This document shows, in pieces, positions 24,379-55,017 of a stretch of 64,000 nt of DNA. The notes under the pieces were generated by a model. The model searched no databases, was not told where the DNA came from, and was given only the letters and a program-made list of their open reading frames with translations. Every line of letters begins with the position of its first letter. The first letter of the stretch is position 1. The translations under genes and the position numbers were made by a program. Origin of the DNA: Planctomycetota bacterium (GTDB lineage Bacteria > Planctomycetota > UBA8108 > SXIK01); NCBI GenBank assembly GCA_965223845.1, contig CBDCXR010000004.1:1312001-1376000 (forward strand), written 5' to 3'.

Positions 24379-25275
24379 GTGACGAACGCATCGCAGTCGC
24401 AGATCCCCGACTCCACGATCGCCGCTAGCCTGCACGCGAATCGCATCGCCGTGGGTGCTGCCGCCGCCGGATTCATCGCGTTCTTCTGGACGACCGGACG
24501 CGGGTTGATCGAGCAGTGGTCGAGGGACGACGACTACTCCTTCTGCTTTCTCGTCCCGGTGATCTCGCTCGCGATCCTGTGGGCCGATCGAAAACGACTC
24601 GGCGCGCTGCCGGCGCGACGATCGATACTCGGGCTCGTCGCCTGCGTCCTCGCGCTCGGTGCGTACCTCTTCGCGCAGCATCTTTCGATCAACCTCATCG
24701 CGCGACTCGCGGGGTGGGGCACGTTCGTCGGTGCGGTGATCTTTTGTCTCGGGTGGGGCATCGTCAGGGCGAAGGCGTTCCCGTTCCTGTTTCTCCTCTT
24801 CGCGATCCCTCCGCCCTTCTTCGTTACGTCGCCCATTCGTCTCGAGCTGAAGCGACTGGTGACGCTCCTCTCGACGGAGCTCCTCACACTCGTCGGGGTG
24901 CCGATCGCTCCCGATGGGAACGTGCTCGTTCTCGGCGAGCACCTACTCGAAGTGGCCGACGCCTGCACCGGCATCCGTTCGCTCATGGTGATCATCGCGA
25001 CGTCCGTTCTCTTCGCCTACGTGTTCCGCTGCCGCTGGTGGACGGGAGCGCTTCTCGTCGCGACGGCGATTCCCATCACGGTCGCGGCGAACGTCGGTCG
25101 CATCATCGTGGTCGCGGGCGCACTTTACGTCCTCGACCTCGACCTCACGAGCGGCGTCGCTCACGAGGCGGTCGGAATGGCGGCGTTCGTGGTCAGTCTC
25201 GTCCTTCTCTACGTGACCTATCGCTTCTACGAATGGTGTCTCGCATCGCCGGCGCCGAAGGGGGACGAGTCATGA
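24379..25275 (+). CDS. Exosortase (EpsH/Xrt family)
   Basis: About 8 TM helices; WSRDDDYSFCFLVP, FPFLFLLFAIPPP, LEVADACTGIRSL (Cys), ANVGRI (Arg), AHEAVG (His); start could be 24205. Confidence 0.9.
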   Translation: MTNASQSQIPDSTIAASLHANRIAVGAAAAGFIAFFWTTGRGLIEQWSRDDDYSFCFLVPVISLAILWADRKRLGALPARRSILGLVACVLALGAYLFAQHLSINLIARLAGWGTFVGAVIFCLGWGIVRAKAFPFLFLLFAIPPPFFVTSPIRLELKRLVTLLSTELLTLVGVPIAPDGNVLVLGEHLLEVADACTGIRSLMVIIATSVLFAYVFRCRWWTGALLVATAIPITVAANVGRIIVVAGALYVLDLDLTSGVAHEAVGMAAFVVSLVLLYVTYRFYEWCLASPAPKGDES

Positions 25276-25976
25276 ATCGGTTCGCAGTCGTCGCCGTGCT
25301 TCTCTGGTGCGCGTTCGCTCTCAAGGTCGGGCTCGTCGGCTCGGCCGATGGCCGCGTCGAGGCCCTCGATCCGCGCATCCCGCTCTCGGAGTACCCCGAA
25401 ACCGTCTTCGGAGCAGGCTGGTCGGTGAAAAACGTCGAGCTTCCGGCCCGCGTGGTGGAGCTCGCCGGGCTTTCCGACTACGTCCACCGAGAGTACCGAC
25501 AAGGAGGGCGCGCGTTCGTTCTCTACGTCGCTTACGTCCGCGGCCGCGCGAACGATGGGATCCACCACCCGAGCGTCTGTCTCCCGAGCCACGGGCTCGA
25601 AATCCAGTCGCAGGAAACGTATTCGATCGCCGCGAGCTCGAAGCGCGCCGTCGACTGCATGGAACTGCGCTGCGAGAGCAAGTTCGGCGAGGGACTCTTC
25701 AGTCTGTCGACGTTCTACGGGAACGGACGCTTCCATCCCGATCCCAACGCACTCCGTCTGGCGGACCGCCTCTCTCCTATGCGATACTACGTCATGGTGA
25801 CGGTGACCGGAGACTACATCGGGTCGCTGGACCGGACGCGGGAGTTCTACTCCGAGCGCATGCGCGAGGCGCTGCCCGCGCTTATGGCTCATCTCCCCGG
25901 GGCAGTCGTAGAGGCCGAGAGCGAGGCTAGCGGTGAGTCCGCCACCCGCGCGGGTGAATCCACACGGGTCGAGTGA
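25272..25976 (+). CDS. Exosortase-associated EpsI family protein
   Basis: ATGA overlap with the exosortase; N-terminal TM; SDYVHREY..LYVAY...IHHPSVCLPSHG (H-x-P-x-x-C motif). Confidence 0.8.
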   Translation: MNRFAVVAVLLWCAFALKVGLVGSADGRVEALDPRIPLSEYPETVFGAGWSVKNVELPARVVELAGLSDYVHREYRQGGRAFVLYVAYVRGRANDGIHHPSVCLPSHGLEIQSQETYSIAASSKRAVDCMELRCESKFGEGLFSLSTFYGNGRFHPDPNALRLADRLSPMRYYVMVTVTGDYIGSLDRTREFYSERMREALPALMAHLPGAVVEAESEASGESATRAGESTRVE

Positions 25977-26077
25977 CGCAGCGTTACGCCCGGACCGATC
26001 CGAACGAGTGAGCCGAATCCCAGAGTGATCCAGCGCCCGCGAGTTTCGTCCGGCGCCCTCCAACCCGATAGCCGAGC

Positions 26078-29000
26078 ATGAAGCTACGCCTCTTCCTTTT
26101 TTTGCTCTTCCTGATCGCGATTCCCGCGGTGCCGCTCTACCTGCTCCGCGACACCCAGGACAATCAGATCCGGCGGTGGCGGGACGCGTCGCGGACGTTC
26201 CTTTACGACATCGGCGATCTGGACCGCGCCGAGGAGCTGAACGAGCAGGTGCTCGCGCGGTTGCCGGAGTCGGTGACGGACCGCGTCGTTCGCGCGCTGA
26301 TCTTGGAGGCGCGCGGCACGGAAGAGTCTCTGACGCAGTCACTTGAGGCACACGAGGCGCTCGTCGAGGAGTTTGGGTCGCGGCTCCTCGTCCTCCATCT
26401 CTACCGCGCCCGAATTCTGATGGCGCTCGGACGCGCGGGCGAGGCTCGAGCGGTCGCCTGGAGCGTCGTCGACGGTTTTCCCTATGCCGCGACGATGGAG
26501 CTCGGGCGCATCGCGATGGCGCTCCACGAGACCCGGGCCGCCCTCGATCACTTTCGCCGCGCCACGGAGTTCGCCGGCGGGGCGTTCGAATCGGTCGGCG
26601 CGTGGGTCGGGCTCGCCGACGCGGCTCAGGCTCTGCAGCAGACTCCAGTCTCCACGCTGACCGCCGTCGAGACGGAAACGCTTCAGCGGCAGTACGTCGG
26701 TGCTCTCGAGAAGGCCCTCCAAGATCTGATCGATGCGGAGAGTACTCTCGCCCACCCGCGGCGTCTTCTCTGGGTCACGCGGATCGCCGATCGCCTCGCG
26801 GCGACCGAGAGCTCGATGCGGACGCCGTTCTACAACTGCTTTCAGCGCCTGGAGGATCTGCGCGTCCGCGACCGTCACATGTCCGGACTCAGCTTTTACA
26901 GCCTCGTCAGCGGCCTTCTCCTCCTCAAGGCGGCGGAATTCGAAGCTACCCTCCTCGAAGCGGCGAGCGGTGAGAACCAGGCCTCGCTCTTCGTCGCGGC
27001 GAACCATCGCCTGGCGCGCGCGCTCGCCGCCTATTCAGTGAAAGACGCGCGCGATTTGCTTGCGAAGGTTCCGGAGCCCGAGCCGGAGACTCCGCCCGCG
27101 CCGGACGACGAGGACGACCGCGCGACGAAGACGTCCATCGTCGCCGACTACGCCGAGGTGCTCCGCGATCGCAAGCACTACACCGAGATCCTCATGGCGG
27201 TCGCGAACGGGTATCTCGCCTCGAGCCGGTTCAACATTCTCCTCAGCGACGACTCGGAGCTCTCCCTCGCCGCGCGAATCGCCGACGCCGTCGCGTGCGA
27301 CGACGCGGATATCAGCGCGACGTTCCGTCTCGTGCAGGGTCTCGCGCGCTACCGCGGCGGCGCTGCGGCGTCCACGGAGTGGCTCGAATCGTTCTTCGAC
27401 GGATTCTCCGAGACCGAGACGATGCGGATGGCGCTCGCGCTCGCGACGTGGTCGTTCGATCACTTGCCGAGCACCGATCTGGCCGGGAGGTTCCTCGATC
27501 TGGCCCAGCGTTCGGGCAAGTACTCGCGCGAGCTGCTCGGTGCGCAGGCGATCCTCCTCAGCCGCATGCGCGAGCGGCCTCAGACGGCGGAGCGCGCGGA
27601 GAAGGATCTCGAACAGCTCATCGGGTCGGCCGCCGAGAACTCGCGCGACTTCAAGGAGCATCTCCGGGTCGTCGATCTCCTCACGCGGGTCCACGGTGCG
27701 AGCCGCGCGCTGCAGTATCTTCGCGGGATCGAGGTCGTTCCCGCCGATCAGCTCGCGTACGAAGCGACGCGGGACCGCCTCGCGACGATCGCGGAACACT
27801 CCACGCCGCCCGACGCCGAGCGCCTGCGCAACGCGCTCGCACTTCGCATCCGACTTCTCCTCCACCATCCCGGAGCCCTTCCGACGCCGGATGCGCCGTC
27901 GATTCGTGAGAGCGTGATCCGTCTTCGCGATGATCCGAGTGGGGGCGACGACGCGGTGGACGACGTGGTGGGGAGCCTCGTTCGCGACGCGTTTCCGGCG
28001 GCGTCGGACGACGAGTCGAAGCGCTTCGTGAGGATCCTGCGCGCGTTTTGTCGCCAGGAGTTCGCGGTCGTGTTCGCGGACTCGGAGCCCCTCGCTGACG
28101 GCGATTCGTTCCAGCCAGTCCTCTCCCTCATTCGTGGGACGAGCGCACTACGACTAGGGACCGGCACCGGCGAAGAAGCGATCACCTCCGAGGTGCAAAA
28201 AGCTCAGCGCGAGTGGCTCGATCGAGCGCGCGCAGAGTTTCAGCGCTATCCGGACTACCCTCCGAATCGACTCGAGCTGTTCCGAGCGCGCCTCGCTCGC
28301 GTGCCGGTCGATCGCGACATCGACGCCGAATTGCTCGCGGAGCTCGAGTCGGCCGCGCTGGGCGGGGAGCTGGGGCCCCAGGGGCAGTGGCTGCTCGTCC
28401 TCGCGCTCCAGCATCGGCTGAACGCGCAGCTCGCGGAAGTCGAGTTCGATGCCGCCGCCGCGCGCGCGACCTTCGTCAAGCTGAGGCGAGTCCTCCGATC
28501 GCTGCTCGAGCTCGATCCCGGGTTTCTGCCCGCGTACGAAGCGCTCGCCGAGACTTACGTCTTCGCCGACGGCGCCGACGACGACCTCCGCGAGGTGTTC
28601 GAGGTCGATCGAGAGCGCGCGATCAACGCGCTTCGCGCTGCCCCCGCGCTGACGCTCCCGATGCTCCGGCGCCTCACCCAAATCATGCCGGCGTCTCGAC
28701 CGCCGCAGGAGACGCTCGTCTACCTCGAGGCGCTCGCGCTCCTCGAGCCGTCCGCGGACGTCTTCATCGTGCTGAGCGAATACTACTTGAAGATCGCGCC
28801 GCCCGAGTTCTACCTCCGGCTCTACGCCGAGGATCCCGCGCCGCCCCCGCAGGAGCTGGCGGTTCGGGAGGCCGAGGAGGAGCTCGCAACGATCGTGCGC
28901 AGCGTGCTCGGGGCCGACGGTCGGAAAATCCGCGCTCTCGTCGAATTCCTTCGCTCCTCAACCTCCTCCGGCTCGATCCGCGGAGTCGTGATCGAGGCGC

Positions 29001-29620
29001 TCGCGGAACGGTTCCGCTCGGTGCCGGAGCAGAGCGCGGTGCGGGAGCTGGCGCTCGCCCAGCACTTCTCGCGGCTCCGGGAGCAGGCGATCACGTCCAA
29101 TGTCAAGCATACGTACAAACAGCGTATGCTAGAGCACTACTCCCGGTCCCGGGAGTTTTTCGAGACTCTCGGCCAGAGTCCACCTATCCTGTTGTTGAAC
29201 AACCTCGCATGGCATCTTTTGTCCGAGCCGGATGAGGATGCCCGGAGGAGAGGTCTGGAAATTGCAAGGACGGCCAAGCAGCGGGCCTTAGGGCCGGATC
29301 GGATGCCTCAGGTGTACGACACCTACGCCTGGGCGCTCTACCGAAACGGCGAGCTTGTCGACGCACTCCGGGAATACCGGAGCCTGCTGGAGATTCAGGA
29401 CGCGCCAAGTTATCGGTTTCGGTTCGCGAAGGTTCTGTCGGATTCCGGGTGGGACCACGACGCGCTCGCCGAGCTGAACCGCGTGCTGAATCTGCCGCAC
29501 TCGTTTCCGGAGCGAGAAGAAGCGAAACTCCTCAAGCACGAAGTCTCGAGCCGAATCTCGGCCCGAGACGACGAAGAATCTGATTCTGACTCCGGCGCGG
29601 AGCCGAAAACCTCCTCATGA
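26078..29620 (+). CDS. Large membrane-anchored TPR/helical protein (PrsT-like position in an exosortase locus)
   Basis: N-terminal TM; C-terminal LLNNLAWHL...YDTYAWALYRNG...RFRFAKVL...FPEREEAK, typical of exosortase-system TPR proteins. Confidence 0.7.
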   Translation: MKLRLFLFLLFLIAIPAVPLYLLRDTQDNQIRRWRDASRTFLYDIGDLDRAEELNEQVLARLPESVTDRVVRALILEARGTEESLTQSLEAHEALVEEFGSRLLVLHLYRARILMALGRAGEARAVAWSVVDGFPYAATMELGRIAMALHETRAALDHFRRATEFAGGAFESVGAWVGLADAAQALQQTPVSTLTAVETETLQRQYVGALEKALQDLIDAESTLAHPRRLLWVTRIADRLAATESSMRTPFYNCFQRLEDLRVRDRHMSGLSFYSLVSGLLLLKAAEFEATLLEAASGENQASLFVAANHRLARALAAYSVKDARDLLAKVPEPEPETPPAPDDEDDRATKTSIVADYAEVLRDRKHYTEILMAVANGYLASSRFNILLSDDSELSLAARIADAVACDDADISATFRLVQGLARYRGGAAASTEWLESFFDGFSETETMRMALALATWSFDHLPSTDLAGRFLDLAQRSGKYSRELLGAQAILLSRMRERPQTAERAEKDLEQLIGSAAENSRDFKEHLRVVDLLTRVHGASRALQYLRGIEVVPADQLAYEATRDRLATIAEHSTPPDAERLRNALALRIRLLLHHPGALPTPDAPSIRESVIRLRDDPSGGDDAVDDVVGSLVRDAFPAASDDESKRFVRILRAFCRQEFAVVFADSEPLADGDSFQPVLSLIRGTSALRLGTGTGEEAITSEVQKAQREWLDRARAEFQRYPDYPPNRLELFRARLARVPVDRDIDAELLAELESAALGGELGPQGQWLLVLALQHRLNAQLAEVEFDAAAARATFVKLRRVLRSLLELDPGFLPAYEALAETYVFADGADDDLREVFEVDRERAINALRAAPALTLPMLRRLTQIMPASRPPQETLVYLEALALLEPSADVFIVLSEYYLKIAPPEFYLRLYAEDPAPPPQELAVREAEEELATIVRSVLGADGRKIRALVEFLRSSTSSGSIRGVVIEALAERFRSVPEQSAVRELALAQHFSRLREQAITSNVKHTYKQRMLEHYSRSREFFETLGQSPPILLLNNLAWHLLSEPDEDARRRGLEIARTAKQRALGPDRMPQVYDTYAWALYRNGELVDALREYRSLLEIQDAPSYRFRFAKVLSDSGWDHDALAELNRVLNLPHSFPEREEAKLLKHEVSSRISARDDEESDSDSGAEPKTSS

Positions 29621-31074
29621 ACCCTCTCTTTCTTCGCCAGAAGCTCTCTCGAGTCCTCTCCCGGCCTCCGGAAGTCCTCTACGCACTGAGTTCGCATCCG
29701 TTCCTCATTCTCGGATGTCTGTGCCTCGGAGGACTAGCCACGTGGGCGTCGCAGGTGAGCATGCAGACGACGTACGTCGCTTCGGCGCAACTGCTCGTCC
29801 AGCCGCCCGATACGACGGCGGAAGGCCGCGTGAACGCGCGCTCGCGGCTCGAGCAATTCCAGTTCTTCAATCGGCAGGTGCGGATCCTCGACAGCGACCC
29901 CGTCATCGGCGACATGCTTAAGATCCTCACCGGCGAGGGAACCGAGACCGGCTCGATCGCGGATTCGAATCCCGTCCAGCAGATCGGCGAGCGTCTCAAC
30001 GACTTCCAGGATCGCATCGAGGAGCTGATCAAGCTCGACCAGGCGGCGATGGGAGCGCGCGGCAACGACCTCCAGGCTCGAATCTACGCCTTCCGGGATC
30101 GCGCCCGGCTCGAACCGGATTCGAAGAACAACGTCGTCCATCTGTACGTCCACGGTCAAAACCGCGACGCGATCATGAAGGAGATCCGGACGTGGATCGA
30201 CTCGTACGAGGAACGCGCGAACGCGATCGCACAAAAGGGCCAAGAGGAGTTGATTCAGAGCCGGTTGAGCTACCGGCGCGAAGTGCGGGATGAAGCCGAC
30301 CGCAAGCTGAAGAAGCACCTCGAGACCTACCCCGAGATCGCGGACTGGACGGCCGAAGACCTGATGCTCGTGATCACGAACACGCAGGCGCGCATTCAGG
30401 AGCTCGACAACCGCATCCTCAACTACCGTCCCGAGACGCCGGCGGACCGGCCGCGTTCTCCCGCGCTGCTCGAGCTCGAGGGGGAGATTCAGGGACTCGA
30501 ACGGACCCTCCGCGGTCGCGAGATGGCGCTCTTCGACATGGAGCTCTATCTCGCCCCCGACACTCCGGAGATCGGGCGCGAGAAGAAGGCGATCGGGCAC
30601 TTGAAGAGCCAAATCGAAGCGAAACAAAAGGAAATCGCACGGATCGAAGCCGCGGAAAACGTGCCCACCACGACGGCCAGCGGCCGCGACGTCCTCGCCG
30701 AGCTCCGCGGGCAGCGGCAAGAGAAAGCACTCGAGTTTACGCGGCTCGTTCGGTTGAAGAAGCACGTCCACACCTTGGCCGACCTCGAGAAGACGCTCGA
30801 AGTGGCCCAGGGCGACCTGCAGGAAGTCGAGGCGACGGCGAACATGGTCGCCACTCAGCGCGGCGTCGACATCCTCGAGCCCCAGCGACCAGCGGTGAAC
30901 GCACGTCGCGAGGGGCCGCGTCCGCTCTACGTCGTGCTCGGCGGGATCGGGATCGGGATGTTTGTCGGCATGGCGTTGGCAGTCCTCTGTGAGGTGTTTA
31001 GCGGGCGGGTTCGATTCAAGCACGACGTGATGGCCGAGCTCGGCATGCCCGTCATCGCGGTTTTCCCGAAGTAG
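29617..31074 (+). CDS. Polysaccharide co-polymerase / chain-length determinant (Wzz/GumC-like)
   Basis: N-terminal TM plus YVASAQLLV; long coiled coil; Pro-rich ILEPQRP..GPRP; Gly-rich TM; C-terminal ELGMPVIAVFP. Confidence 0.8.
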   Translation: MNPLFLRQKLSRVLSRPPEVLYALSSHPFLILGCLCLGGLATWASQVSMQTTYVASAQLLVQPPDTTAEGRVNARSRLEQFQFFNRQVRILDSDPVIGDMLKILTGEGTETGSIADSNPVQQIGERLNDFQDRIEELIKLDQAAMGARGNDLQARIYAFRDRARLEPDSKNNVVHLYVHGQNRDAIMKEIRTWIDSYEERANAIAQKGQEELIQSRLSYRREVRDEADRKLKKHLETYPEIADWTAEDLMLVITNTQARIQELDNRILNYRPETPADRPRSPALLELEGEIQGLERTLRGREMALFDMELYLAPDTPEIGREKKAIGHLKSQIEAKQKEIARIEAAENVPTTTASGRDVLAELRGQRQEKALEFTRLVRLKKHVHTLADLEKTLEVAQGDLQEVEATANMVATQRGVDILEPQRPAVNARREGPRPLYVVLGGIGIGMFVGMALAVLCEVFSGRVRFKHDVMAELGMPVIAVFPK

Positions 31075-31078
31075 TCGA

Positions 31079-31969
31079 ATGAGTAAAGATCCCGCTGAAT
31101 TGACCACCCCGGAAGTGACGGACGTCGAGCTTGCCGTCGAGCAGCCGAACGCCGCCCCCGTCATCGCGGCGACGGAACGCCCGAAGACTCGCTTCGGTCA
31201 GCTTTTCCGCAGCCGAAGGGCGGCACAGTTTCTCGGCTATCCTCTCAATCGTGAGGCCTTGCCGCCGAAGCTCCGCGACCACCGGCGTCTCATGCGTCGA
31301 CTGCAGCGCTACGCCGCCGACTCGGAGCTCGGCGACACGACGCTGCAATTCCGCGACGCGATCGTTCGTTCCGTCGTCGGTCAGTCCGAAGACCAACGCA
31401 CCGGAATCACGGTGGCGCTCTCCGGCGTCGAAGGCGGCGAGGACGCCCGCCTCACGTCCCTCGTTCTCGCGATCGCACTCGGTGCCAACACCCACTACCG
31501 CGTCGCGCACATCGACGGTCTTTTCGATCAGTCTTACTTCGAAGCGCTGACGACCGTCCTTCAGCTGACCGAGAACACCGGGCGCGTCGAGCGCGGGGGC
31601 GCTCGCCTTCGCGGATACTTCAATCCGAATCAGCCGAACGTCTATTTCTTGAAGAATGTCTTCGACGAGAACCCGCTCGGGTTCTTCTCGGACAAGCACC
31701 TGAAGAGCTATCTCGAGATTCTGAAGAGCCGGTTCGACTTCACGGTCATCGGAATGCCTCCGTTTGCGACCGACTCGTCGAACGTCTTCCTCGCGCCGGA
31801 GGTGGATCGACTTTATCTCGTCGCCTCGGCCGGGAAGACGCGGGTGCACGATGTAGATCACTGTATGGAAGTAGCGGCCGAGGCCAACATCGAGATCACG
31901 GGAGTGGTGCTCAACGAGCAGAAGGCGCCGCTCTGGTCCCGTCTCTTCTGGCGGCGGTACTTTTTCTAG
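31079..31969 (+). CDS. CpsD/CapB-like BY-kinase homologue with degenerate Walker motifs
   Basis: Position after the co-polymerase; fold order matches (VAHIDG; LKSRFDFTVIGMPP; VDRLYLVASAGKT; ITGVVLN) but Walker A reads GGEDARLTS. Confidence 0.7.
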   Translation: MSKDPAELTTPEVTDVELAVEQPNAAPVIAATERPKTRFGQLFRSRRAAQFLGYPLNREALPPKLRDHRRLMRRLQRYAADSELGDTTLQFRDAIVRSVVGQSEDQRTGITVALSGVEGGEDARLTSLVLAIALGANTHYRVAHIDGLFDQSYFEALTTVLQLTENTGRVERGGARLRGYFNPNQPNVYFLKNVFDENPLGFFSDKHLKSYLEILKSRFDFTVIGMPPFATDSSNVFLAPEVDRLYLVASAGKTRVHDVDHCMEVAAEANIEITGVVLNEQKAPLWSRLFWRRYFF

Positions 31970-32301
31970 TCTCGAGGCCCGCGTCCCTGCGTTCCCGTCT
32001 CTCAACGGTACTCGAGAGCGTGGTTGCGCGCGGATGTCGGTGATTCCGGTTCGCGGCACTTTTAGTTGATCTTCACCGTGTTGGCTCAACATCTCTGGCG
32101 GCCCGGCGAGTGCGCTCGCCCGGCGGGAGAGAGTCGCGAGGACTCTCACGCTCCACTCGACGGGGGTCCGTCGCGCGCGCCCAGAGGATTCCCGGTAGCT
32201 CATGCGACGCGCGGTTGGCTGGGGCGCGGCGTCGGGGAGTATTCTTCTCTGGCTTCGGCGCGGCCGGGGAGAGTTACGCGGACAGTTTTCGGAACGTACG
32301 A

Positions 32302-33345: not shown

Positions 33346-33361
33346 AACTGCGAACGACGCG

Positions 33362-39007: not shown

Positions 39008-39011
39008 AGCG

Positions 39012-40931: not shown

Positions 40932-41003
40932 ACGCCCGGGGCGAGCCGCTGTTCTTCGGACGGACTCGTCGCCGGATGAATCGAATCGAACCCTTTGAAT
41001 CTG

Positions 41004-47200: not shown

Positions 47201-50200
47201 ATGCTCGAGCGTCTGGCGGAGCGGGAGTGGACTCCGGACGAGATCGTCCACCTCTGGCTACTGACGGAGCGGGAGTCGTACCGTCCGGGTTCGAACTTCT
47301 TCCATCGCAATCAGGAGCAGGGGTTCTACAGCCTCCTCTTTCTCAGCCAAGAGCTCAGCGATCGGTGGCTCGAGAGTCCTTGCGGGCTGACGGTCGTCTC
47401 GACGGGCATGCAGCGGCTAGGGGACGAGACGCTCGCCTACCCGGAGAAGGCCACCGCTCTCGGCCCCGTGCGAGTGATCCCGAACGAGTTTCCGCTCGTC
47501 CGCTGCCGGAGTTTCGATGTCGACCTGCCCGCACCGCGGCGGCGCCGCGCCGCGGGCGCGCGCTTTTCCGCGCTCGCAGAAGCGCTGATCGATGAGATCC
47601 GCGCCGGCGAGGATCCCGAAGTCGCGCTCCGGGGTGAATCACGATATGTGAAGACCTACGAGCCTCTCCACCTCGAGCCGGCTAAGGCGGAGGAATCGCG
47701 CCTGCGGAAGGGTGGTGTCTATCTCATCACCGGTGGACTCGGCGGGATTGGAATGGCGGTGGCGCAGTACCTGGCCGAGCACTGGCAGGCTCGTCTCGTT
47801 CTCGTCGGTCGCTCCGGACTGCCGGAGCGGAGCGCGTGGGATCGATGGCTCGGGACGCACAGCGAGCGCGACCCGAAGAGCCTCGGCATTCGAGCCGTGC
47901 GCGAGCTCGAACGGACCGGCGCCGAGGTGTTGGTGGGAGTCGCGGATGTCGCCAATCCCGAGCAGATGAACGCCGTCATCGCAGAGGCGAACGAGCGCTT
48001 CGGGCCGATCCAGGGGGTCGTTCACGCGGCCGGAAATCTCGACGACGCGATCATTCCGAGCAAGACGCAGGAGCAAATCGAAAACGTCTTTTCGCCCAAA
48101 GTGCACGGGACGCTCGTCCTCACGAACCTTTTCGCCGAGACCGCGCTCGATTTCTTCGTCTTCTTTTCGTCGACGAGCACGATCCTCGGCCCGGCAGGTC
48201 AGGTGGACTACACGGCGGCGAACTGCTTCTTGAACGCTCTCGCGGAAAGTCAACGCTCGGTGGGGCGGGATCGAGACAGCGGCGGCACGTTCGCGGTTCA
48301 GTGGGGAGTGTGGAACGAGGTCGGGATGGCGCGCGCGCTCAGTCGTCGCATCGGTCAGCCCGACGCAGAGTTCTTTACCGCGCGCGAGCTGCTGCCGCAT
48401 CCACTCCTCGACGAACGACTCGTGACGGCGTCGGGCGATATCGCGTACGGTGCGACGTACTCGGCGGAGTCGCGGTGGATCATCGCGGAGCACCGGACGC
48501 GTGCCGGCCAGATGCTCGTTCCCGGGACTGCGTTCCTCGAGCTCGCTCGCGCGTCGTACGAGGACAGCCGCCGCTCACCGGAGTGCGAGCTGAAGAACGT
48601 GAGCTTCCTCGTTCCGCTCGAGGTGAAGGAGGGCGCCGAGCGAGAGGTGCGCGTCGAGCTCACGCGGAGCGACGGTGACTTCAGTTTCAGCATCCGCAGT
48701 CGTCGTTCGGTCGAGCACCCCTGGACGCTTCACGTCGAAGGGGGATGTGCGGCGCTCGCGTCCGAGGTCCCCGGTCCCCTCGATCTTTCGTCCATCTCCG
48801 AGCGCTGCCGCGACGTCGTTCTCGATGAAGGCGGCGACGCCCTGCGGACGGATCAGGAGGAGTTCCTCGACTTCGGACCGCGCTGGGCGGTGCTCCGGCG
48901 AGCCGAGTTCGGGCGTGGCGAAGCGCTCGCGCGCATCGAGCTAGCACCCGAGTACGAAAGCGAAGTCGGATCGTTCGGACTCCACCCGGCTCTCCTCGAT
49001 ATCGCGACCGGATTCGCGCTGCGACTCGTCGAGGGCTACGCGCCGGGGCGAAACCTCTACGTTCCCGTGTCCTACGATCGCGTTCGCGTCTACCGGCGAC
49101 TCCCGGCATCCTTCCATAGCTGGATGCGTCCCGTAGAAACGTACACGACCGACGACGACGTCGTCGCGTTCGACGTCACGCTCGTCGATGGTGAAGGGCG
49201 CGCTCTCGTCGAGGTCGAGGGCTTCCGCATGAAGCGACTCGACACCGCGCTCCTCCTCCCGCCGGAGAGCTACGCTTCCGAAGCGCAGCTCTCGGCCGCC
49301 GAACGGTTCTTCATGACGACGTTCGATGCGGGCATCGATGTCCGCGAAGGCATGGAGGCTCTCGCGCGCGTCCTCTCGGGCTCGACCGGAGCGCAGATCA
49401 TCGTGTCCTCGATCGATCTCGACGCCCTCCGTGCAGGGATGGAACGGGCGCGCGAGTCCGAAGGCGCCGGAGAGACACAAGTCAAATTCGCTCGTCCTAA
49501 TCTCTCGAGCGAGTACGAAGCTCCGCGAGACGAGGTCGAAACCGCACTCGTCGCTCACTGGGAGGAGCTCCTCGGTGTCGATCAGCTCGGAGTCCACGAC
49601 GACTTCTTCGAGGTCGGCGGACATTCACTCGTCGCCGTCCGGCTGTTCGCCAAGATCAAGAAGGAGTTCGGAGTCGAGCTGCCGCTTTCCGTTCTCTTCG
49701 AGGCCCCGACGATCGCGGGCTGCGCCGACATCATCCGCGCGCAGACCGGCGACCGGGAGGCGAGCGGAGCCGGCGGAACGTTTCGCTCGGCCCACAAGTT
49801 TCTCGTTCCGATGCGAACGGTCGACGACGCGAAGAAACCGCCGTTCTTCATCGTCGCGGGCATGTTCGGAAACGTCCTCAATCTCCGCTATCTCGCCTCC
49901 CGTCTCGGCGACGATCAGCCCGTCTACGCGGTGCAGGCGAAAGGGCTTTACGGCGACGATCAGCCGCACACCCGTTTCGAGGACATGGCGCGCGACTACC
50001 TCGAGGAGATTCGGACCGTTCAGCCGGAAGGGCCGTACTTTCTCGGCGGCTTTTCGGGCGGAGGGATCACCGCGTTCGAGATGGCTCAGCAGCTCCGCGC
50101 CGCTGGCGAGGACGTCGGAATTCTCGTCATGCTCGACAGCTTTCCGCCGGAGATTCCGTCGCTCGACTGGGGGGACCGTCTGCGGATTCAAGCGCAGCGA

Positions 50201-50683
50201 CTCTCGCGCCAGGGTGTCTCGTACGTCTTTACGTGGGCCAAGAACCGCGCGCAGTGGGAGTGGAAGAAGATCACGAGGCGATTCGGCGAAGCCGAAGAAG
50301 AGCTGACGCCGGCCGAGTTTCGTTCGACGCAAATCGAGGCCGCGTTTTACGACGCGCTCGCGCATTACGACGTGACGGACTACCCGGGGAAGGTCATCCT
50401 CTTCCGGCCCAAGCTCGACGAGTCTCACCGGCTGAGCGGAGGACGCGTCGCGAACAAGGACCGACGCCTCGTCGATCCGACCAATCACTGGGCTCCGTAC
50501 GTCTCCGGCGGGATCGAGGTGCACGAAGTCGTCGGCGATCACGACAGCATGGTCCTCGAGCCGAATGTGCGCGTGCTCGCGAAGAATCTGCGCGCGGCGG
50601 TGGAGGAGGCGCAGCTCGCCTGGGCAGTGGCCGCGAGCCCCGAGACGGCAGCGGAGAGATCGGTCGTCGAGCCCGCGCGTTGA
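44249..50683 (+). CDS. Single-module type I polyketide synthase, KS-AT-KR-DH-ACP-TE
   Basis: KS QTACSTS / HGTGT / NIGH; AT GHSMG and VAAHS; KR GGLGGIG, HAAGNLDD, DYTAAN; DH EHRTRAGQMLVPG and HPALLD; carrier FFEVGGHSL; TE GFSGG and GDHDSM. Confidence 0.95.
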   Translation: MDFADTDIAIVGISARFPGSPDADAYWKSLRDGVESIRSYSDEELVAAGVPASEVARSNYVKAGAPLEEMEWFDAGFFGFGPKDAAVLDPQHRHFLECSWEALEDSGTRPATFPGSIGVFAGVGMQSYFIFNLLTNREVMDTMGLFLVRHTGNDKDFLPTRVSYCLDLRGPSVSVQTACSTSLVAVHLAVQSLINGECDLALAGGATIEVPHRHGYLFKEQEILSPDGHCRSFDASSRGTVFGSGIGVVALRRLSDAVEDGDPVHAVIKGSAINNDGSQKIGYLAPSVDGQAAVILEALSLADLSPEDIGYVETHGTGTPVGDPIEVAALTQAFRSQTDRRQFCAIGSVKSNIGHTDTAAGVAGLIKVVQALRHEMLPPSLHFESPNPACAFETSPFFVNDRLREWPRSSSPRRAGVSSLGVGGTNAHVILEEAPVLPATPPDDSWELLVFSGKTVTSAERNAERLAAHLEEHPDLHLGNVAYTYQVGREPFGHRRAVACRDGADAISAIRDGGAKRIATGTAPETEAAVVFMFPGGGAQYPQMGRDLYDALPVYRESVDRCLETLAGLVDADLRALMFPADGADVEAAAEQLRRPLLALPTLFATEYALAQLWMSWGVEPAAMTGHSMGEYTAACLAGVFTLEDALRVVTLRGRLFETLPPGGMLSVPMAEDAVRPLLGDELSIAAINGPELCVVSGGDAAIERAAERFEAKEIEFRRLKIDVAAHSSELEPILEEFRRGVGELSLSAPERPFVSNVSGTWARPEEVVTPEYWVQHLRRTVRFADGLSTILRQGPQALIEIGPGTTLGSLARMHPDRRTSDPVASSLRHPQESVDDRQFLLSNLGQLWCSGMAVDWLKFQGERERRRLSLPTYAFDRQRYWIEPGEPVARVEADDTAITKLPALEDWLQRPAWRVAGLANVEDDLAKRWLVFLDAAGVGSEVVRALRARGADVVTVREGDAFYEVGTEEFILAPEHGAEGYRLMLERLAEREWTPDEIVHLWLLTERESYRPGSNFFHRNQEQGFYSLLFLSQELSDRWLESPCGLTVVSTGMQRLGDETLAYPEKATALGPVRVIPNEFPLVRCRSFDVDLPAPRRRRAAGARFSALAEALIDEIRAGEDPEVALRGESRYVKTYEPLHLEPAKAEESRLRKGGVYLITGGLGGIGMAVAQYLAEHWQARLVLVGRSGLPERSAWDRWLGTHSERDPKSLGIRAVRELERTGAEVLVGVADVANPEQMNAVIAEANERFGPIQGVVHAAGNLDDAIIPSKTQEQIENVFSPKVHGTLVLTNLFAETALDFFVFFSSTSTILGPAGQVDYTAANCFLNALAESQRSVGRDRDSGGTFAVQWGVWNEVGMARALSRRIGQPDAEFFTARELLPHPLLDERLVTASGDIAYGATYSAESRWIIAEHRTRAGQMLVPGTAFLELARASYEDSRRSPECELKNVSFLVPLEVKEGAEREVRVELTRSDGDFSFSIRSRRSVEHPWTLHVEGGCAALASEVPGPLDLSSISERCRDVVLDEGGDALRTDQEEFLDFGPRWAVLRRAEFGRGEALARIELAPEYESEVGSFGLHPALLDIATGFALRLVEGYAPGRNLYVPVSYDRVRVYRRLPASFHSWMRPVETYTTDDDVVAFDVTLVDGEGRALVEVEGFRMKRLDTALLLPPESYASEAQLSAAERFFMTTFDAGIDVREGMEALARVLSGSTGAQIIVSSIDLDALRAGMERARESEGAGETQVKFARPNLSSEYEAPRDEVETALVAHWEELLGVDQLGVHDDFFEVGGHSLVAVRLFAKIKKEFGVELPLSVLFEAPTIAGCADIIRAQTGDREASGAGGTFRSAHKFLVPMRTVDDAKKPPFFIVAGMFGNVLNLRYLASRLGDDQPVYAVQAKGLYGDDQPHTRFEDMARDYLEEIRTVQPEGPYFLGGFSGGGITAFEMAQQLRAAGEDVGILVMLDSFPPEIPSLDWGDRLRIQAQRLSRQGVSYVFTWAKNRAQWEWKKITRRFGEAEEELTPAEFRSTQIEAAFYDALAHYDVTDYPGKVILFRPKLDESHRLSGGRVANKDRRLVDPTNHWAPYVSGGIEVHEVVGDHDSMVLEPNVRVLAKNLRAAVEEAQLAWAVAASPETAAERSVVEPAR

Positions 50684-50771
50684 CGACGGGCGAAACTCAA
50701 GCGATCAGGATCGAGGCCGAGCGCGCTCGCGCGTCCGGCACGCGAAGAGAACACTCGAGAGGAGCTTCGGA

Positions 50772-51365
50772 GTGAACGACGAACACTACTGGCGCAGCGC
50801 GCTCGAAGACGCACGGGACGTCTTGGTGAAGTTCCTAGAGGATCCGGATCAGCTCGCGAGGTGCGGCCGGTTTTCGGCGCTCGTCGGCGATGCGCTCGCC
50901 GCGGGTCACACCGTCTTCACCTGCGGAAACGGCGGGAGCCACTGCGACGCGATGCACTTCGCCGAGGAGCTCACGGGGCGCTACCGGCAGAATCGGCGAC
51001 CGCTCCCGGCGCTCGCTCTCGGTGATCCGAGCCACACCACTTGCGTGTCGAACGACTACGGGTTCGAGCACGTCTTCGCGCGTCAAGTCGAAGCGTTCGG
51101 CCGTGACGGAGATGTTCTCATCGGACTCTCGACGAGCGGCAATTCGCAGAACGTTTGCCGCGCCTTCGAGGTCGCCGAGAAGAAGGGAGTCCGGCGCGTG
51201 GGACTCCTCGGGAAGGACGGCGGCAAGCTATTGGAAATGAGCGATCTCGCGATCGTCGTCCCCGGCCAGACCTCCGATCGGATCCAGGAGATCCACATCA
51301 AGCTGATTCACACGGTGATCGAAACGGTCGAGCGCCGTCTCTTTCCCGAGAATTACGCTTCGTGA
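50772..51365 (+). CDS. gmhA: Sedoheptulose-7-phosphate isomerase
   Basis: CGNGGSHCDAMHFAEELTGRY, CVSNDYG, STSGNS, DRIQEIHIK. Confidence 0.93.
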   Translation: MNDEHYWRSALEDARDVLVKFLEDPDQLARCGRFSALVGDALAAGHTVFTCGNGGSHCDAMHFAEELTGRYRQNRRPLPALALGDPSHTTCVSNDYGFEHVFARQVEAFGRDGDVLIGLSTSGNSQNVCRAFEVAEKKGVRRVGLLGKDGGKLLEMSDLAIVVPGQTSDRIQEIHIKLIHTVIETVERRLFPENYAS

Positions 51366-51425: not shown

Positions 51426-51869
51426 TCAGTCCGCGACGAGCTCGGTGACGATTTCGTTCGAAAGCGGCCCTTCGTTCCCGAAATGATCGTACGCCGCGAC
51501 GGCGACGTAGTACGTTCCGGGTTCGAGATCGTAGAGCGTGACGCGCGTGTCCGTCCCGACATCCGTCACCATGTCGTAGTTGCCGGACTCGCGGCCGTCG
51601 TAGATCCGGTAACCAGCTAGGTCACCGAGCTCGGAGCCGTCATCGTTCGCCGTCACCGAGTCCCACGTCACCTGTAGGGTCGCGGTCGCCGGCGGGGGCG
51701 GGGGAGGAGGTGGCGGCGGGGACGAGTCGGAGATCCCTCCGGTCGCGCCATCGAGATCGTCGATGAGGACCTCGTCACCGGCGCATCCGATCAGCGAGCT
51801 CGCACACACCATCGCAATGGCCCACTTCGCGACGAAACTCGTTCCTGCGAGCGAAATCGTGGCGCGCAT
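51426..51869 (-). CDS. Small lipoprotein with a poly-Pro linker and a C-terminal Fn3 domain
   Basis: Lipobox LIGC; run of 10 Pro; VTWDSVTANDDGSELGDLAGYRIY...PGTYYVAVAAYDHFGNEG; GGAGGG RBS. Confidence 0.8.
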   Translation of the reverse strand: MRATISLAGTSFVAKWAIAMVCASSLIGCAGDEVLIDDLDGATGGISDSSPPPPPPPPPPATATLQVTWDSVTANDDGSELGDLAGYRIYDGRESGNYDMVTDVGTDTRVTLYDLEPGTYYVAVAAYDHFGNEGPLSNEIVTELVAD

Positions 51870-52073
51870 GGATCCCTCCGCTTTCTCTCCGTTACCGCCC
51901 AGGGCGCCGTCGGTCCCGAGGGGGCGCGCGGTCGCCGGAAGGCGAAAGGCAACGTTCGTGCCGCGGTGCGGTGTGGAGCTGCGACGGCCCGGAAGTTGTT
52001 CTACGAGGGACAGTTACCGGATTCTCGCGCGTACCCGCCGGAGACCGCGAAGTGGCCCACGGGGCCGCGATGG

Positions 52074-52101
52074 GTAAGAACGCCACGACCGGAAACGCCT
52101 C
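52074..52101 (+). promoter_or_regulatory. Candidate ECF-sigma promoter GTAAGAACG-N13-CGCCTC
   Basis: About 225 bp upstream of the nucleotidyltransferase-like/priming transferase pair; matches 22819-22846. Confidence 0.45.
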
Positions 52102-52326
52102 GGTAGGCGAATCGGGGCGGGCGCGACGTATCGCAGCCGCGTCCGGCCGAGACGTTCGCGCGGTCTTGAGAGTCCCGAGCTCAGGAATGTTCAGCGCCGC
52201 CGCCCGCCGGCCGATGAAACCATGGCAGCCGAGTCGTCTTGACGGTTCGAGCACGCGTTCGCTACGCTCGGCTTGGTCGGCGCGCGTTCGGGCGGGATCG
52301 CCCGGAGGGAAGGGACGGAACAATCG

Positions 52327-53271
52327 ATGAGTGAGAGCCTCGGTACGGCGAGCGGTCCCAGTCCCGCCCCGCGAAGTCTTGTTTTGCTCGGCGGAATCGT
52401 CCGCGTCGATCACTTCGGCGCGGAGCTCGGACGATCGGTGCTCGACCTTCCGATCTCGCCGGACGAAACGATGTTTTCGGCCTGGCGCGAGCACGCGCAG
52501 ACCCTCGCTGAGGCGATCGGGAGCGAGCCTCTCGACGTATCGCTGGTCGTCAACTCGGACCGGACTGTTCCGGACGGGTGGTCGAACGACGACCGCGTTC
52601 GCCTCACGATCGAGCGCGACCCGGCGGAGTACCGCGGAACGGGCGGGCTCCTGCGCGACTTCGTCGCCCGCAAGTACGATGCGGATGATTGGATCCTCGT
52701 CGCCAACGCGGCGCAGCTGTTCCTCGAACCGCTTCCCCCGCTCGTCGAGCGGCTCCGTGCAGCGGGAGCCGAAGTGGCTACGCTGACTCAGAAGGACGGC
52801 ACACCCGCCGGACTCACTCTCCTCAGGTGCGGAAGTCTCGACGTGATCCCCGAGGTCGGCTACTGCGATCTCAAGGAGCAGGGGCTCGCCAAGATCGCGG
52901 AGCTCCGCCCTGTCGGCGTCGTCACACTCGAACCGACGTGTGTCCATCCCGTCCGCGGTCTCGACGACTACGTCGAAGCGCTCAAGGCCTTGTACCGCCA
53001 CCGACAAACCGGGCCGGGCGTCGTCTCCGATCCGTTTGCCGAAGAATGGCAGGCGACCTTTTCGGTCGTCGAGCCGGAGAGCGTTGTCGAGGAGGGAGCC
53101 GTTCTCCACGATGCGGTCGTCCTCCGCGGCGGCCGGGTCGAGCGGGGAGGATTCGCCGCGCGTACGATCGTCGGGCCGGGAGGTGTCGTCCGCGCCGGCG
53201 AATCGGTCATCGACGCCGTCGTCCACGAAGGTGGCGTCAGTCACCCGTCCACGGTCGTGACGGGGCGCTAA
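52327..53271 (+). CDS. Degenerate nucleotidyltransferase-like protein with C-terminal left-handed beta-helix
   Basis: LVLLGG replaces LAGGxGTRL; YRGTGGLLRD, ILVANA; C-terminal hexapeptide repeats (VEEGAV LHDAVV LRGGRV ERGGFA). Confidence 0.65.
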   Translation: MSESLGTASGPSPAPRSLVLLGGIVRVDHFGAELGRSVLDLPISPDETMFSAWREHAQTLAEAIGSEPLDVSLVVNSDRTVPDGWSNDDRVRLTIERDPAEYRGTGGLLRDFVARKYDADDWILVANAAQLFLEPLPPLVERLRAAGAEVATLTQKDGTPAGLTLLRCGSLDVIPEVGYCDLKEQGLAKIAELRPVGVVTLEPTCVHPVRGLDDYVEALKALYRHRQTGPGVVSDPFAEEWQATFSVVEPESVVEEGAVLHDAVVLRGGRVERGGFAARTIVGPGGVVRAGESVIDAVVHEGGVSHPSTVVTGR

Positions 53272-53511
53272 GGGCGGTCGTAGGGGGCCGAGGCGAGCGA
53301 CTCGCGCGCGAGATTCGGCTTGGCTCACCGGCGTCGCCTGGTTCCGAAGAACTCGCTCGACGCGGCGAGAGAGTACGGCCGATTGCGACGTTCTCGGCGG
53401 GGAGGGTATTATGATGTGCCTTCGCGCTCGCGGAATGCGGTCGCGGCCGCCATCTCGGCCCGCGATCGAGTCGCGGATCCCGCCGACTCGCCGAGAGGAG
53501 ATTCCGGTACT

Positions 53512-55017
53512 GTGTCGACCGTCGCCGCCCCGGCTCAATCGAGCTCCCGTCCGCGAGTCGCCGATCGCCCCCTCCTTTGGGGCCTCGCACCAGCTGAACT
53601 GCACGATCGATTCTGGGCGGCGCGCGGTGTCAAAGTCGTGCGGCGCGACGAGGCCGCTTCGCTCGGCGACGATGCCTCCTTCTACCTTCTCACCGAGTCG
53701 AATGCGCTCGTCACCTTCGACCTGAGCGTGCTGATGGGGGCCTTCAATTGGTTTCGAACGAAGGTGCTCGTCTTTCGACTGAGCGATCAGGCGAACCCGG
53801 ACTACCGCGAGATCGCCGTCACGGACGACGACGGGAAGCTCGTCGAGTTCCAGCGCGTCTACCGGACCGCGGAGCCGCGCGAGACGCGAGTGCTTCTCAC
53901 CCGCGACCGGGGAATTGCTGAGCTGTGGCAAGCGTCCGCTGAACCCGACGCGAGCTGGCGGCTCATGTTTCAGTTCATCTCGCCCGCGTCGCGCGTGGTC
54001 GATGTCGTCGACGGGCGAATCTACGAGATCGGCGTGCCGAACGACGAAGTCTCGCTCCTCAAGGAGCTGATGACCCTATGGGCGCGACCGGACGCGACGG
54101 TACCGCGAGTGCGCGCGGCGGGCGAACGAGTGTGGGCGGATCGCGGCGCAGAGATCGATCCGAATGCGAAGGTGCACGGTCCCCTCTGGCTCGGGTGCGG
54201 TCGAACGATCGGACCCGGCGAGAGTGCGGTCGGTGCGGCGGTCCTCTGGGACGCCGAGCCGACGGGTGAGGGAGACGATGCAGCGGACGGCGGCGCGGAG
54301 AACGAAGCGAGCGCCGACGCCGTTTCGCTGAACGGGAAGCGACGGCGGCGCGGGAACGGAACGTCGAGCCGGCGGCGCGGGGGCGAAGACGAATTCGCGG
54401 CGACGAGCGCTCGGACGGGAGGCTATTTCGGCAAGCGCGCTTTCGATATCGTGTTTTCGTTCGTCGCCCTGTGCTTCACGCTTCCCCTCTATCCGTTCAT
54501 CATGCTCGCGATCTTCCTCGAGGATGGTCGCCCGTTCTTTTTCGCGCACCGCCGCGAGACGGTGGGCGGAAAGGACTTTCCCTGCCTCAAGTTTCGGACG
54601 ATGCGCCGGGACGCCGAGGAGATCAAGAAGCGTCTTCTCGAGCAGAACCAGGTGGACGGACCGCAGTTCTACATGGAAAACGATCCGCGCATACTGCGCG
54701 TCGGCCCCTTTCTCCGCAAGCTGAAGCTCGACGAGCTGCCTCAGTTCTTGAACGTGCTCGTTGGGCACATGTCGGTTGTCGGACCGCGCCCGAGTCCGCT
54801 CTCGGAAAACCAGTTCTGTCCCGCGTGGCGCGACGCGCGCCTCAGTGTTCGTCCCGGAATCACCGGACTCTGGCAGGTACGCCGGACTCGGCGCGAGGGG
54901 CTCGATTTCCAGGAGTGGGTGCAGTACGACCTCGAGTACGTGAAGAACACGAGCTTCGCGCACGACCTGTGGATTCTCTGGCGAACCGTGTTCGTCGTGG
55001 CGTTCGGTCGCTACTAG
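53512..55017 (+). CDS. Priming phosphoglycosyltransferase (Bac_transf) with an N-terminal nucleotidyltransferase-like/LbH extension
   Basis: C-terminal KRAFDIV, KFRTM, DPRILRVGPFLRKLKLDELPQFLNVL.GHMSVVGPRP, RPGITGLWQV, DLEYV; start uncertain (53320-53512). Confidence 0.88.
   Translation: MSTVAAPAQSSSRPRVADRPLLWGLAPAELHDRFWAARGVKVVRRDEAASLGDDASFYLLTESNALVTFDLSVLMGAFNWFRTKVLVFRLSDQANPDYREIAVTDDDGKLVEFQRVYRTAEPRETRVLLTRDRGIAELWQASAEPDASWRLMFQFISPASRVVDVVDGRIYEIGVPNDEVSLLKELMTLWARPDATVPRVRAAGERVWADRGAEIDPNAKVHGPLWLGCGRTIGPGESAVGAAVLWDAEPTGEGDDAADGGAENEASADAVSLNGKRRRRGNGTSSRRRGGEDEFAATSARTGGYFGKRAFDIVFSFVALCFTLPLYPFIMLAIFLEDGRPFFFAHRRETVGGKDFPCLKFRTMRRDAEEIKKRLLEQNQVDGPQFYMENDPRILRVGPFLRKLKLDELPQFLNVLVGHMSVVGPRPSPLSENQFCPAWRDARLSVRPGITGLWQVRRTRREGLDFQEWVQYDLEYVKNTSFAHDLWILWRTVFVVAFGRY

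Follow-up and report, generated by a model that had tools for sequence, protein, structure and literature searches.

Exosortase genes usually sit in polysaccharide loci, and conserved Cys, Arg and His residues have a role in the exosortases themselves. In the XrtA loci, reportedly described by Haft and colleagues, EpsH and EpsI are encoded with the TPR lipoprotein PrsT, the chain-length and kinase proteins EpsF and EpsG, and a priming transferase, and N-acyl amino acid synthases were reportedly linked to PEP-CTERM/exosortase systems by Craig, Cherry and Brady in 2011. Among surface-polysaccharide loci with a polyketide synthase (PKS), the wcb locus of Burkholderia also carries GDP-heptose genes. 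A further system, a set of PKS, glycosyltransferase (GT), nonribosomal peptide synthetase (NRPS) and phosphopantetheinyl transferase (PPTase) genes, is conserved among roseobacters as an orphan cluster (Martens 2007, as related in PMC5014874). Here, we describe a locus of a planctomycete genome (G000; 7.93 Mb, 65% G+C) in which an exosortase gene and a PKS gene stand together. It lies at 24-55 kb of the 64-kb stretch of DNA analysed (C4:1312001-1376000, hereafter the window), and its genes were identified by Pfam and NCBIfam scans of open reading frames (ORFs).

We read the locus, with moderate confidence, as an exosortase-type polysaccharide locus that carries a sugar-supply module and one half of a conserved, uncharacterised assembly line, the product of which most likely decorates or primes the polymer. 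On sequence grounds, the PKS is an orthologue of the PKS of the roseobacter orphan cluster and not a stand-alone lipid maker. Its ketosynthase (KS) begins at residue 6, so that no loading domain or module is present. The active sites are intact in the KS (C179, H315, H355), the acyltransferase (AT; S628), the ketoreductase (KR; Y1321), the dehydratase (DH; H1415, D1584), the acyl carrier protein (ACP; S1793) and the thioesterase (TE; S1936, D1963, H2098). Full-length relatives were found in 21 genome-contig loci at 42-48% identity. Eleven Rhodobacteraceae loci match at 44-48% over at least 98% of the length, and the members from Sulfitobacter, Roseovarius, Sagittula, Yoonia and Tabrizicola at 45-48% over the full length. 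A protein search returned a large family of the same length (~2130-2190 aa) and domain content in Planctomycetota, Myxococcota, Pseudomonadota and Acidobacteriota, of which some members are fused to a PPTase and none is functionally named. Relatives of the PKS/GT/NRPS/PPTase cluster occur in at least seven phyla.

In a FastTree phylogeny of 27 family members (with only local supports and one flagged long-branch pair), the window's PKS falls inside the family, and its nearest neighbour and sister is the PKS of another genome of the phylum, G005 (49% identity). Members from the window's phylum stand at five or more places in this tree, among Chloroflexota, Actinomycetota, Acidobacteriota, Binatota, Myxococcota and Pseudomonadota. 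Such scatter suggests that the PKS cassette has moved repeatedly between phyla.

The other half of the assembly line is encoded 3.8 Mb from the window. There, tblastn located the gene of a partner protein (C4:5169078-5173808), followed by an Sfp-type PPTase gene (to 5174695). The partner is 45% identical over 1527 aa to the 1550-aa initiation protein of the roseobacter cluster, which comprises formyltransferase N and C domains, an adenylation (A) domain split by a luciferase-like monooxygenase that uses flavin mononucleotide (FMN), and a carrier domain. The order formyltransferase, split A domain, carrier is also that of the partner. The scores of the partner are 472.7 for the amino-acid adenylation model TIGR01733 (cut-off 317.4) and 520.7 for TIGR04020 (cut-off 244) on the insert, which sits between the A4 (FDxS) and A5 (NxYGPTE) motifs. 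Its best match in the PDB is LgrA (863 bits, in four stretches). Glycine is the substrate of MtaG-type interrupted A domains.

Across 401 genomes of the phylum, one evenly drawn sample in which related genomes are not independent, the PKS through its TE was found in 9 and the full partner in 10, with both present in 9 genomes from five families. Each half is thus found in about 2.5% of the genomes, and the overlap is nearly complete. A tenth genome, G391, was rejected as a carrier of both, as it has the partner, but its PKS stretch is only 36% identical, lacks a TE and lies in a 3188-aa frame. Similarly, G111 and G175 were rejected as members of the PKS family, since they match only the first 931 of 1245 C-terminal query residues and have no ACP or TE. 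An earlier note on the window had proposed that the PKS makes a specialised acyl chain. The absence of a loading domain and the presence of the formyltransferase-A(monooxygenase)-carrier partner in all 9 phylum carriers of the PKS speak against that proposal; they suggest instead that the starter is probably an amino acid and the product probably short.

The neighbourhood of the PKS was compared across 29 full-length PKS loci (21 of 80 genome-contig loci, seven loci of the phylum and the window) by clustering neighbouring ORFs within 10-12 kb of the PKS without reference to the window. The most frequent neighbour is the GT2 family of the gene that stands directly before the window's PKS (18 of 29 loci), in most cases on the same strand and 0-12 bp downstream of the PKS. 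Next in frequency is the 1550-aa protein, found in 17 loci, all among the 21 from outside the phylum and with the PPTase next to it. Other recurrent neighbours are a weakly Wzy_C-like membrane protein (11/29), a WecG-type transferase (10/29), a GT4 (9/29) and a second GT2, of the 32110-33345 family (8/29). In 17 of the 21 extra-phylum loci the 1550-aa protein lies within 10 kb, in the order PKS-GT2-NRPS-PPTase. By tblastn, the partner GT2 was present at 15 of the 21 loci with a full-length PKS but at only 1 of 59 loci with other PKSs, and WecG likewise at 1 of those 59. Further neighbours in Rhodobacteraceae include Wzz, GT2, GT4 and GNVR proteins, and G005 and G044 have 60-63% identical orthologues of the window's GT2 at 37811-39007 next to WecG and the PKS. 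That a glycosyltransferase is the most constant neighbour of the PKS across phyla makes a sugar-joined product likely, and the recurrence of GT2, other GTs, Wzy-like, Wzz and priming transferase genes indicates that a sugar is the most likely point of attachment of the unit.

These observations are consistent with the following scheme. The assembly line would consist of the initiation protein (formyltransferase, A domain split by the FMN monooxygenase, carrier), the Sfp-type PPTase, the PKS and the GT2. The initiation protein would load an amino acid, probably N-formylated and oxidised, and hand it on to the PKS, which would carry out one malonate extension followed by reduction and dehydration; both the starter and the number of extension rounds are presumptive. 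The TE would then free a short amino-enoyl unit onto a sugar of the polymer or of a lipid-linked precursor, a putative acceptor. On the sugar of a repeat unit or of the polymer, the unit would act as a non-sugar decoration or as a primer; a long lipid is less likely, as is a free metabolite. The sugar-supply module would comprise a GDP-heptose-type pathway, GalE and a second kinase/nucleotidyltransferase pair, with any role of heptose being conjectural. The exosortase genes would be co-located because PEP-CTERM proteins and the polymer share one surface structure.

Several points weigh against this reading. The product of the roseobacter cluster was still unidentified in 2016 (PMC5014874), and a literature search found no later identification. 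Of the specificity code of the partner's A domain, only the A4 (FDISVLE) and A5 motifs could be placed. Two candidates were scored per genome, so that the phylum counts of PKS and partner and the Rhodobacteraceae counts of PKS are lower bounds. The two halves are unlinked in the window's genome and in most phylum carriers, where the case for their acting together would be one of co-occurrence. Further, the window's glycan genes are absent near the PKS in 5 of the 21 non-planctomycete loci (L039, L040, L043, L065 and L098), and likewise near the PKSs of G001, G003 and G191. The PKS may also work iteratively and give a longer polyene chain.

The main rival is that the product is a free glycosylated small secondary metabolite, such as a signal, an antibiotic or a chelator, and that its genes stand in glycan loci through shared sugar supply or regulation. 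The gene set is routinely called a secondary-metabolite cluster, also in the roseobacter literature (PMC5014874), such clusters typically have a TE and a dedicated PPTase, and the same five non-planctomycete loci have no glycan genes within 10 kb. However, the conserved neighbour families include no exporter, regulator or resistance genes and consist across several phyla of GT2, Wzy_C-like, WecG, GT4 and Wzz proteins, and each half of the assembly line is found inside an exosortase locus in different genomes of the phylum. We therefore regard a free metabolite as improbable, though a serious contender.

The linkage to exosortase genes bears on a second rival. In the window, the PKS and the exosortase gene are 19 kb apart. 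In G005, 1.2 kb separate the PKS from a divergently oriented exosortase-EpsI-Wzz-kinase-TPR block, and on the other side of the PKS are the genes of a 332-aa protein, a priming transferase, WecG, GT2 and GT4. G003, a sister genome of the same family with a complete chromosome, has exosortase-EpsI-TPR-Wzz-kinase, FN3, NRPS-like, PPTase, 332-aa and priming transferase genes in one locus. Here, the NRPS-like half stands 6.6 kb from the exosortase gene, and the PKS, 4.3 Mb off, has none of the neighbours that it has in the window. The arrangement in G003 implies that one locus frame carries the PKS in one genome and its partner in the other. The claim of the earlier note that the PKS is integral to the locus is borne out by the position of the PKS in G005 and of the partner within the same frame in G003. 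In G312, a PKS-PPTase pair is followed 8.5 kb further by a weak exosortase-like gene, and by a priming transferase. G254, G083 and G044 have the PKS among WecG, GT2 and GT4, with no exosortase gene on the contig; 9.4 kb separate the partner from the PKS in G044, where a genome search found no exosortase, though PKS and partner are present. The PKS, partner and exosortase genes are more than 1 Mb apart on the complete chromosome of G191. Overall, an exosortase was found in 8 of the 10 phylum carriers of PKS or partner, compared with 137 of the 401 sampled genomes, and 129 of these 137 are outside the 10 carriers.

The Rhodobacteraceae differ from the phylum. Among 251 sampled genomes, 60 have an exosortase, 78 the PKS and 17 both, where independence of the two would give 18.6, and 61 of the 78 PKS carriers had no exosortase at E<=1e-20. 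In 2 of the 17 genomes with both, the genes lie within about 10 kb, and in 15 they are on different contigs. XrtD (642 against a cut-off of 400) is 4.5 kb from the PKS in Yoonia (sp. R78084), and an exosortase is 46 kb from it in Tabrizicola. In Sulfitobacter mediterraneus DSM 12244 and Roseovarius gaetbuli CECT 8370, both carriers, no exosortase match exceeded the family cut-off, and the Roseovarius gave a single weak hit. G607 has two PKS copies (contigs C47 and C6), of which the divergent one, 41% identical to the window's, lies 10 kb from an exosortase gene. The 2 close pairs out of 17 exceed random placement, yet linkage is the exception in this family. Taken together, conserved linkage to exosortase, which the earlier note had made a test of its idea, recurs within the phylum and is the exception in Rhodobacteraceae; these counts, together with G044, do not agree with an exosortase-dependent cassette.

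The rival that this linkage might favour is an adjusted anchor model, in which the glycosylated NRPS-PKS product would be the acceptor for PEP-CTERM proteins after the exosortase has cleaved their C-terminal signal. The distances given above in the window, G005, G003 (NRPS-like half), G312 (weak), Yoonia, G607 (second PKS copy) and Tabrizicola, and the 8 exosortase-bearing carriers of 10, agree with it. So do the PEP-CTERM-type tails of the window's genome and the existence of a named acyl-carrier enzyme family tied to exosortase A (TIGR03098). At least four such tails (PEP, a hydrophobic stretch and an Arg run) were found, all four encoded outside the window, among 7 regular-expression matches in 41,044 ORF tails; one TIGR02595 match is above cut-off (30.1 vs 16). 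Against the model stand the exosortase-free majority of Rhodobacteraceae carriers, the genes on different contigs there, G044, the distances in G191 and the 129 exosortase-bearing genomes that are not carriers. Further, the usual siting of exosortases in polysaccharide loci would explain the linkage without any shared chemistry. The independence of the cassette from exosortases in Rhodobacteraceae and G044 argues against an anchor as the family's general function, and the model is in our view quite unlikely. We give still less credence to the narrower claim that, in this lineage, the exosortase would transfer its few PEP-CTERM proteins onto the sugar-linked amino-enoyl product, which would act as nucleophile or anchor. 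If true, an anchor would be the first identified acceptor of a bacterial exosortase, and would explain why, in three or more families of the phylum, one half or the other has come to stand next to an exosortase locus.

The motif LRVGLHV.GF.GGF.E immediately precedes the PEP signal in three of the four PEP-CTERM-type proteins (230-255 aa). The ORFs of these three end at C4 3913613 (+), 3528731 (-) and 6350580 (-), and by their sequences the proteins look like one small cargo family. A paralogue of the locus TPR protein (C4:3913000-3915423; 31% identity over the first 474 residues of the 1180-aa protein) begins about 400 bp past the PEP-CTERM protein ending at 3913613, which links the TPR family to exosortase cargo.

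The heptose genes do not belong to the conserved unit. Homologues of HddA, GmhA and the GHMP kinase were found near the PKS in none of the stretches of eight relatives and none of the 80 genome-contig loci (0/8 and 0/80), and in G005 a GmhB-like gene lies 25 kb from the PKS. The integration of PKS and heptose genes that the earlier note had seen in the locus, and had expected to recur in relatives, is thus not found elsewhere, and the heptose genes are a locus-specific sugar-supply module outside the conserved unit. A third rival, an iterative PKS of WcbR/RkpA type that builds a long-chain lipid to carry or anchor a heptose polysaccharide, as proposed for wcb and rkp, draws on the PKS standing beside GmhA, an HddA-like kinase, a GmhB-like phosphatase and a nucleotidyltransferase, on the window's heptose-pathway genes being the only ones of the genome, on the capacity of single modules for iteration and on the joining of type I PKS and capsule genes in wcb and rkp clusters (PMC3908369), but is very unlikely given the NRPS-type partner, the unconserved heptose linkage and the lack of an ABC exporter or KpsS/KpsC-type gene among the ~40 window ORFs scanned with Pfam. 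The PKS has no enoylreductase (ER) domain, hence no saturated chain would result, and with its NRPS-type starter this makes a long-chain lipid unlikely.

The genes of the locus are listed in Table 1. Every gene named by the earlier note was found at its place, and its description of a co-oriented region holds for 21 of the 22 locus genes, the exception being the FN3 lipoprotein-like gene on the minus strand. Many stop and start codons of neighbours overlap, and together with the shared strand this points to a grouping of the genes beyond chance. One gene that had been read as heptose-type (37023-38018) is GalE. The note did not mention the second kinase/nucleotidyltransferase pair, nor the FN3 and 332-aa genes between gmhA and the priming transferase gene. 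In a genome search, the locus supplied the sole exosortase of the genome and its sole HddA and GmhB homologues. Four sequencing runs of DNA type, all from a single study, contain the window, and none of RNA type was listed.

Table 1. Genes of the locus and one gene upstream of it, by position in the window; 'vs' gives the cut-off of the model (TM, transmembrane; PCP, polysaccharide co-polymerase)
Position	Strand	Product	Support
19509-20816	+	NDP-sugar dehydrogenase (UDP-ManNAc/UDP-Glc dehydrogenase type)	UDPG_MGDP_dh N/central/C; TIGR03026 371.8 vs 189.8
24379-25275	+	Exosortase	TIGR02602 161.9 vs 105.55 (163 bits in genome search)
25272-25976	+	EpsI-like exosortase partner	DUF3485 50.8 vs 26.1; TIGR02914 37.9 vs 42.8
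26078-29620	+	1180-aa TPR protein, N-terminal hydrophobic segment	TPR_2 weak; TIGR02917 43 vs 312
29617-31074	+	Wzz/EpsF-like chain-length (PCP) protein	Pfam Wzz 25.6 vs 25.5; EpsF 47.5, far under cut-off
31079-31969	+	BY-kinase-like P-loop protein, weak assignment	TIGR01007 34.8 vs 108
32110-33345	+	GT2, Glyco_trans_2_3 type, one C-terminal TM segment	Pfam
33329-34648	+	GT4	Glycos_transf_1 113.8 bits
34700-35680	+	GHMP kinase, first sugar-activation set	HddA model 160.7 vs 600
35687-36448	+	Nucleotidyltransferase, first sugar-activation set	Pfam/NCBIfam
36445-37026	+	GmhB-like HAD phosphatase, first set	NF006506 141 vs 178; HAD-IIIA 97.6 vs 44.6
37023-38018	+	UDP-glucose 4-epimerase GalE	TIGR01179 380.1 vs 262.3
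37811-39007	+	GT2, true start probably past 38018	Pfam
38931-39734	+	Nucleotidyltransferase, HddC/Man-1-P guanylyltransferase-like, second set	HddC 103 vs 300
39891-40931	+	HddA-like heptose-7-phosphate kinase, second set	HddA best model, full length, 298.3 vs 600
40995-41891	+	WecG/TagA/CpsF-family glycosyltransferase	Pfam 202 vs 27.4; TIGR00696 155.9 vs 69
41662-42930	+	Polysaccharide deacetylase (CE4)	Polysacc_deac_1 74.1 vs 23.1
42855-43943	+	GT2, conserved PKS partner, 306 bp upstream of PKS	Pfam; family clustering
44249-50683	+	Single-module type I PKS, KS-AT-KR-DH-ACP-TE, 2144 aa	Pfam
50565-51365	+	GmhA sedoheptulose-7-phosphate isomerase, true start probably ~50793, past PKS stop	TIGR00441 218.1 vs 209.45
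51426-51869	-	Small FN3-domain lipoprotein-like gene, sole minus-strand locus gene	fn3 22.2, below cut-off
52273-53271	+	332-aa protein without Pfam/NCBIfam family	Orthologues in G005, G003
53320-55017	+	Polyprenyl-phosphate glycosyl-1-phosphate (priming) transferase	Bac_transf 204; TIGR03025 248.8 vs 295.55

The longest form of the exosortase ORF begins at 24205, and 24379 is an in-frame GTG. Its translation has seven hydrophobic segments, and the Cys, Arg and His that had been described as intact stand in the motifs ADACTGIRS, NVGR and AHE. It scores 170.2 on the XrtA model TIGR03109, under the cut-off of 208, and is therefore not XrtA by that model; every other subtype model is also below its cut-off. 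The ATG of the EpsI-like gene overlaps the exosortase stop, its product has a signal or anchor helix, and its orthologues adjoin the exosortase gene in G005 and G003. The TPR protein, with a distantly PrsT-like C-terminus, is kept after EpsI in both genomes. Two TM segments (20-39 and 436-464) were found in the Wzz-like protein, and the orthologues of the BY-kinase-like protein are 48% identical in G003 and 39% in G005. For the nucleotidyltransferase at 38931-39734, the Man-1-P guanylyltransferase model outscores HddC (174, against a cut-off of 440).

The FN3 gene has an orthologue, 39% identical, that adjoins the NRPS-like gene in G003. The 332-aa gene stands directly upstream of the priming transferase gene in all three loci examined (window, G005, G003). 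The nearest Atlas clusters of its product are mainly from Planctomycetota and are nucleotidyltransferase/hexapeptide look-alikes, which is a lead only; the protein could be a partner of the priming enzyme that is degenerate and sugar-nucleotidyltransferase-like, and a direct comparison with the N-terminal region of the priming transferase gave no similarity. That region is long and unannotated, and the orthologues of the transferase in G005 and G003 align from residue 84.

No Wzx, Wzy or Wza (OPX) gene was found in the window by a Pfam scan of its ORFs, of which about 40, between 11 kb and 61 kb, were scanned for export genes, and PrsK/PrsR regulators were not seen there either. A Wzx-type gene and a Wzy_C-like member occur together at C4:972-976 kb, 340 kb from the window, and the genes of the pathway seem scattered across the genome. 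This Wzx-type flippase gene and this member of the Wzy_C-like family, the usual neighbour of the PKS, belong to a second, distant glycan group (C4:966000-977900, L120), in which a methyltransferase, a beta-helix protein and a GDP-mannose 4,6-dehydratase are also encoded. The NDP-sugar dehydrogenase, 3.4 kb upstream of the exosortase gene, is a possible sugar supply for the WecG-type transferase. Two giant secreted-type proteins, encoded in inverted orientation at 15727-19407 (+, 1226 aa) and 57824-61390 (-, 1188 aa), flank the whole locus; common to both are a Lamin-tail domain, CHB_HEX_C/Fn3-associated repeats and a CotH kinase domain. Past the priming transferase, 55184-57791 encodes a PhyH-family dioxygenase and, on the minus strand, a 600-aa protein that has ASH/Ig-like and dockerin-type domains.

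The PKS/GT/NRPS/PPTase cluster has carried the label of an orphan secondary-metabolite cluster since 2007, yet it is common, with its PKS in 78 of 251 sampled Rhodobacteraceae. From its synteny, the cluster now looks like a carrier-protein-dependent system that adds a non-sugar unit to a surface polysaccharide. The complementary placement of the PKS in the exosortase locus of one sister genome and of the NRPS-like half in that of the other makes polysaccharide decoration a testable reading, and a link between exosortases and this chemistry, if true, would bear on what exosortases attach their substrates to. The earlier note knew of no described system with this combination of genes. Not all of its parts are undescribed, as the PKS/GT/NRPS/PPTase set corresponds to an orphan cluster already reported (PMC5014874). 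We found no literature that links the roseobacter cluster to polysaccharide or exosortase loci.

Compared with described systems, the locus resembles N-acyl amino acid synthases in that acyl/amino-acid chemistry is encoded beside exosortase genes, although those enzymes are a small N-acyltransferase and the enzyme here is a megasynthase. The partner shares the order formyltransferase, adenylation, carrier with the initiation module of LgrA. Unlike in LgrA, its A domain is split by a TIGR04020 monooxygenase and no condensation domain comes next, and the KS of the PKS would presumably be the acceptor. As in the wcb (Burkholderia) and rkp (rhizobia) loci, a single-module type I PKS stands among surface-polysaccharide genes (PMC3908369). 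In contrast to those loci, the window has no ABC-export or KpsS/KpsC-type genes, an NRPS-type partner accompanies the PKS, which has a TE and KR-DH without ER, and the heptose linkage is not conserved.

The likeness to XrtA/PEP-CTERM loci is broader, as exosortase, EpsI, TPR, Wzz-like, kinase-like, GT and priming transferase genes are found together and PEP-CTERM tails are encoded in the genome. The differences are that the exosortase is under the XrtA cut-off, that the TPR, EpsF and kinase models are far under theirs, that there are about four candidate substrates, and that an NRPS-PKS half replaces the acyl-CoA ligase and hydrolase genes (TIGR03098 scores 230 on the partner, against 592). 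The roseobacter set forms one operon, whereas here the exosortase locus holds the PKS and GT2, and the NRPS-like and PPTase genes are 3.8 Mb off. In addition, the GT2 lies upstream of the PKS instead of being translationally coupled downstream, and both are embedded among heptose and exosortase genes. Like the roseobacter cluster, however, the planctomycete genome has a PKS of the same architecture, a GT2 of the same family adjoining it, and the partner and the PPTase that complete the set.

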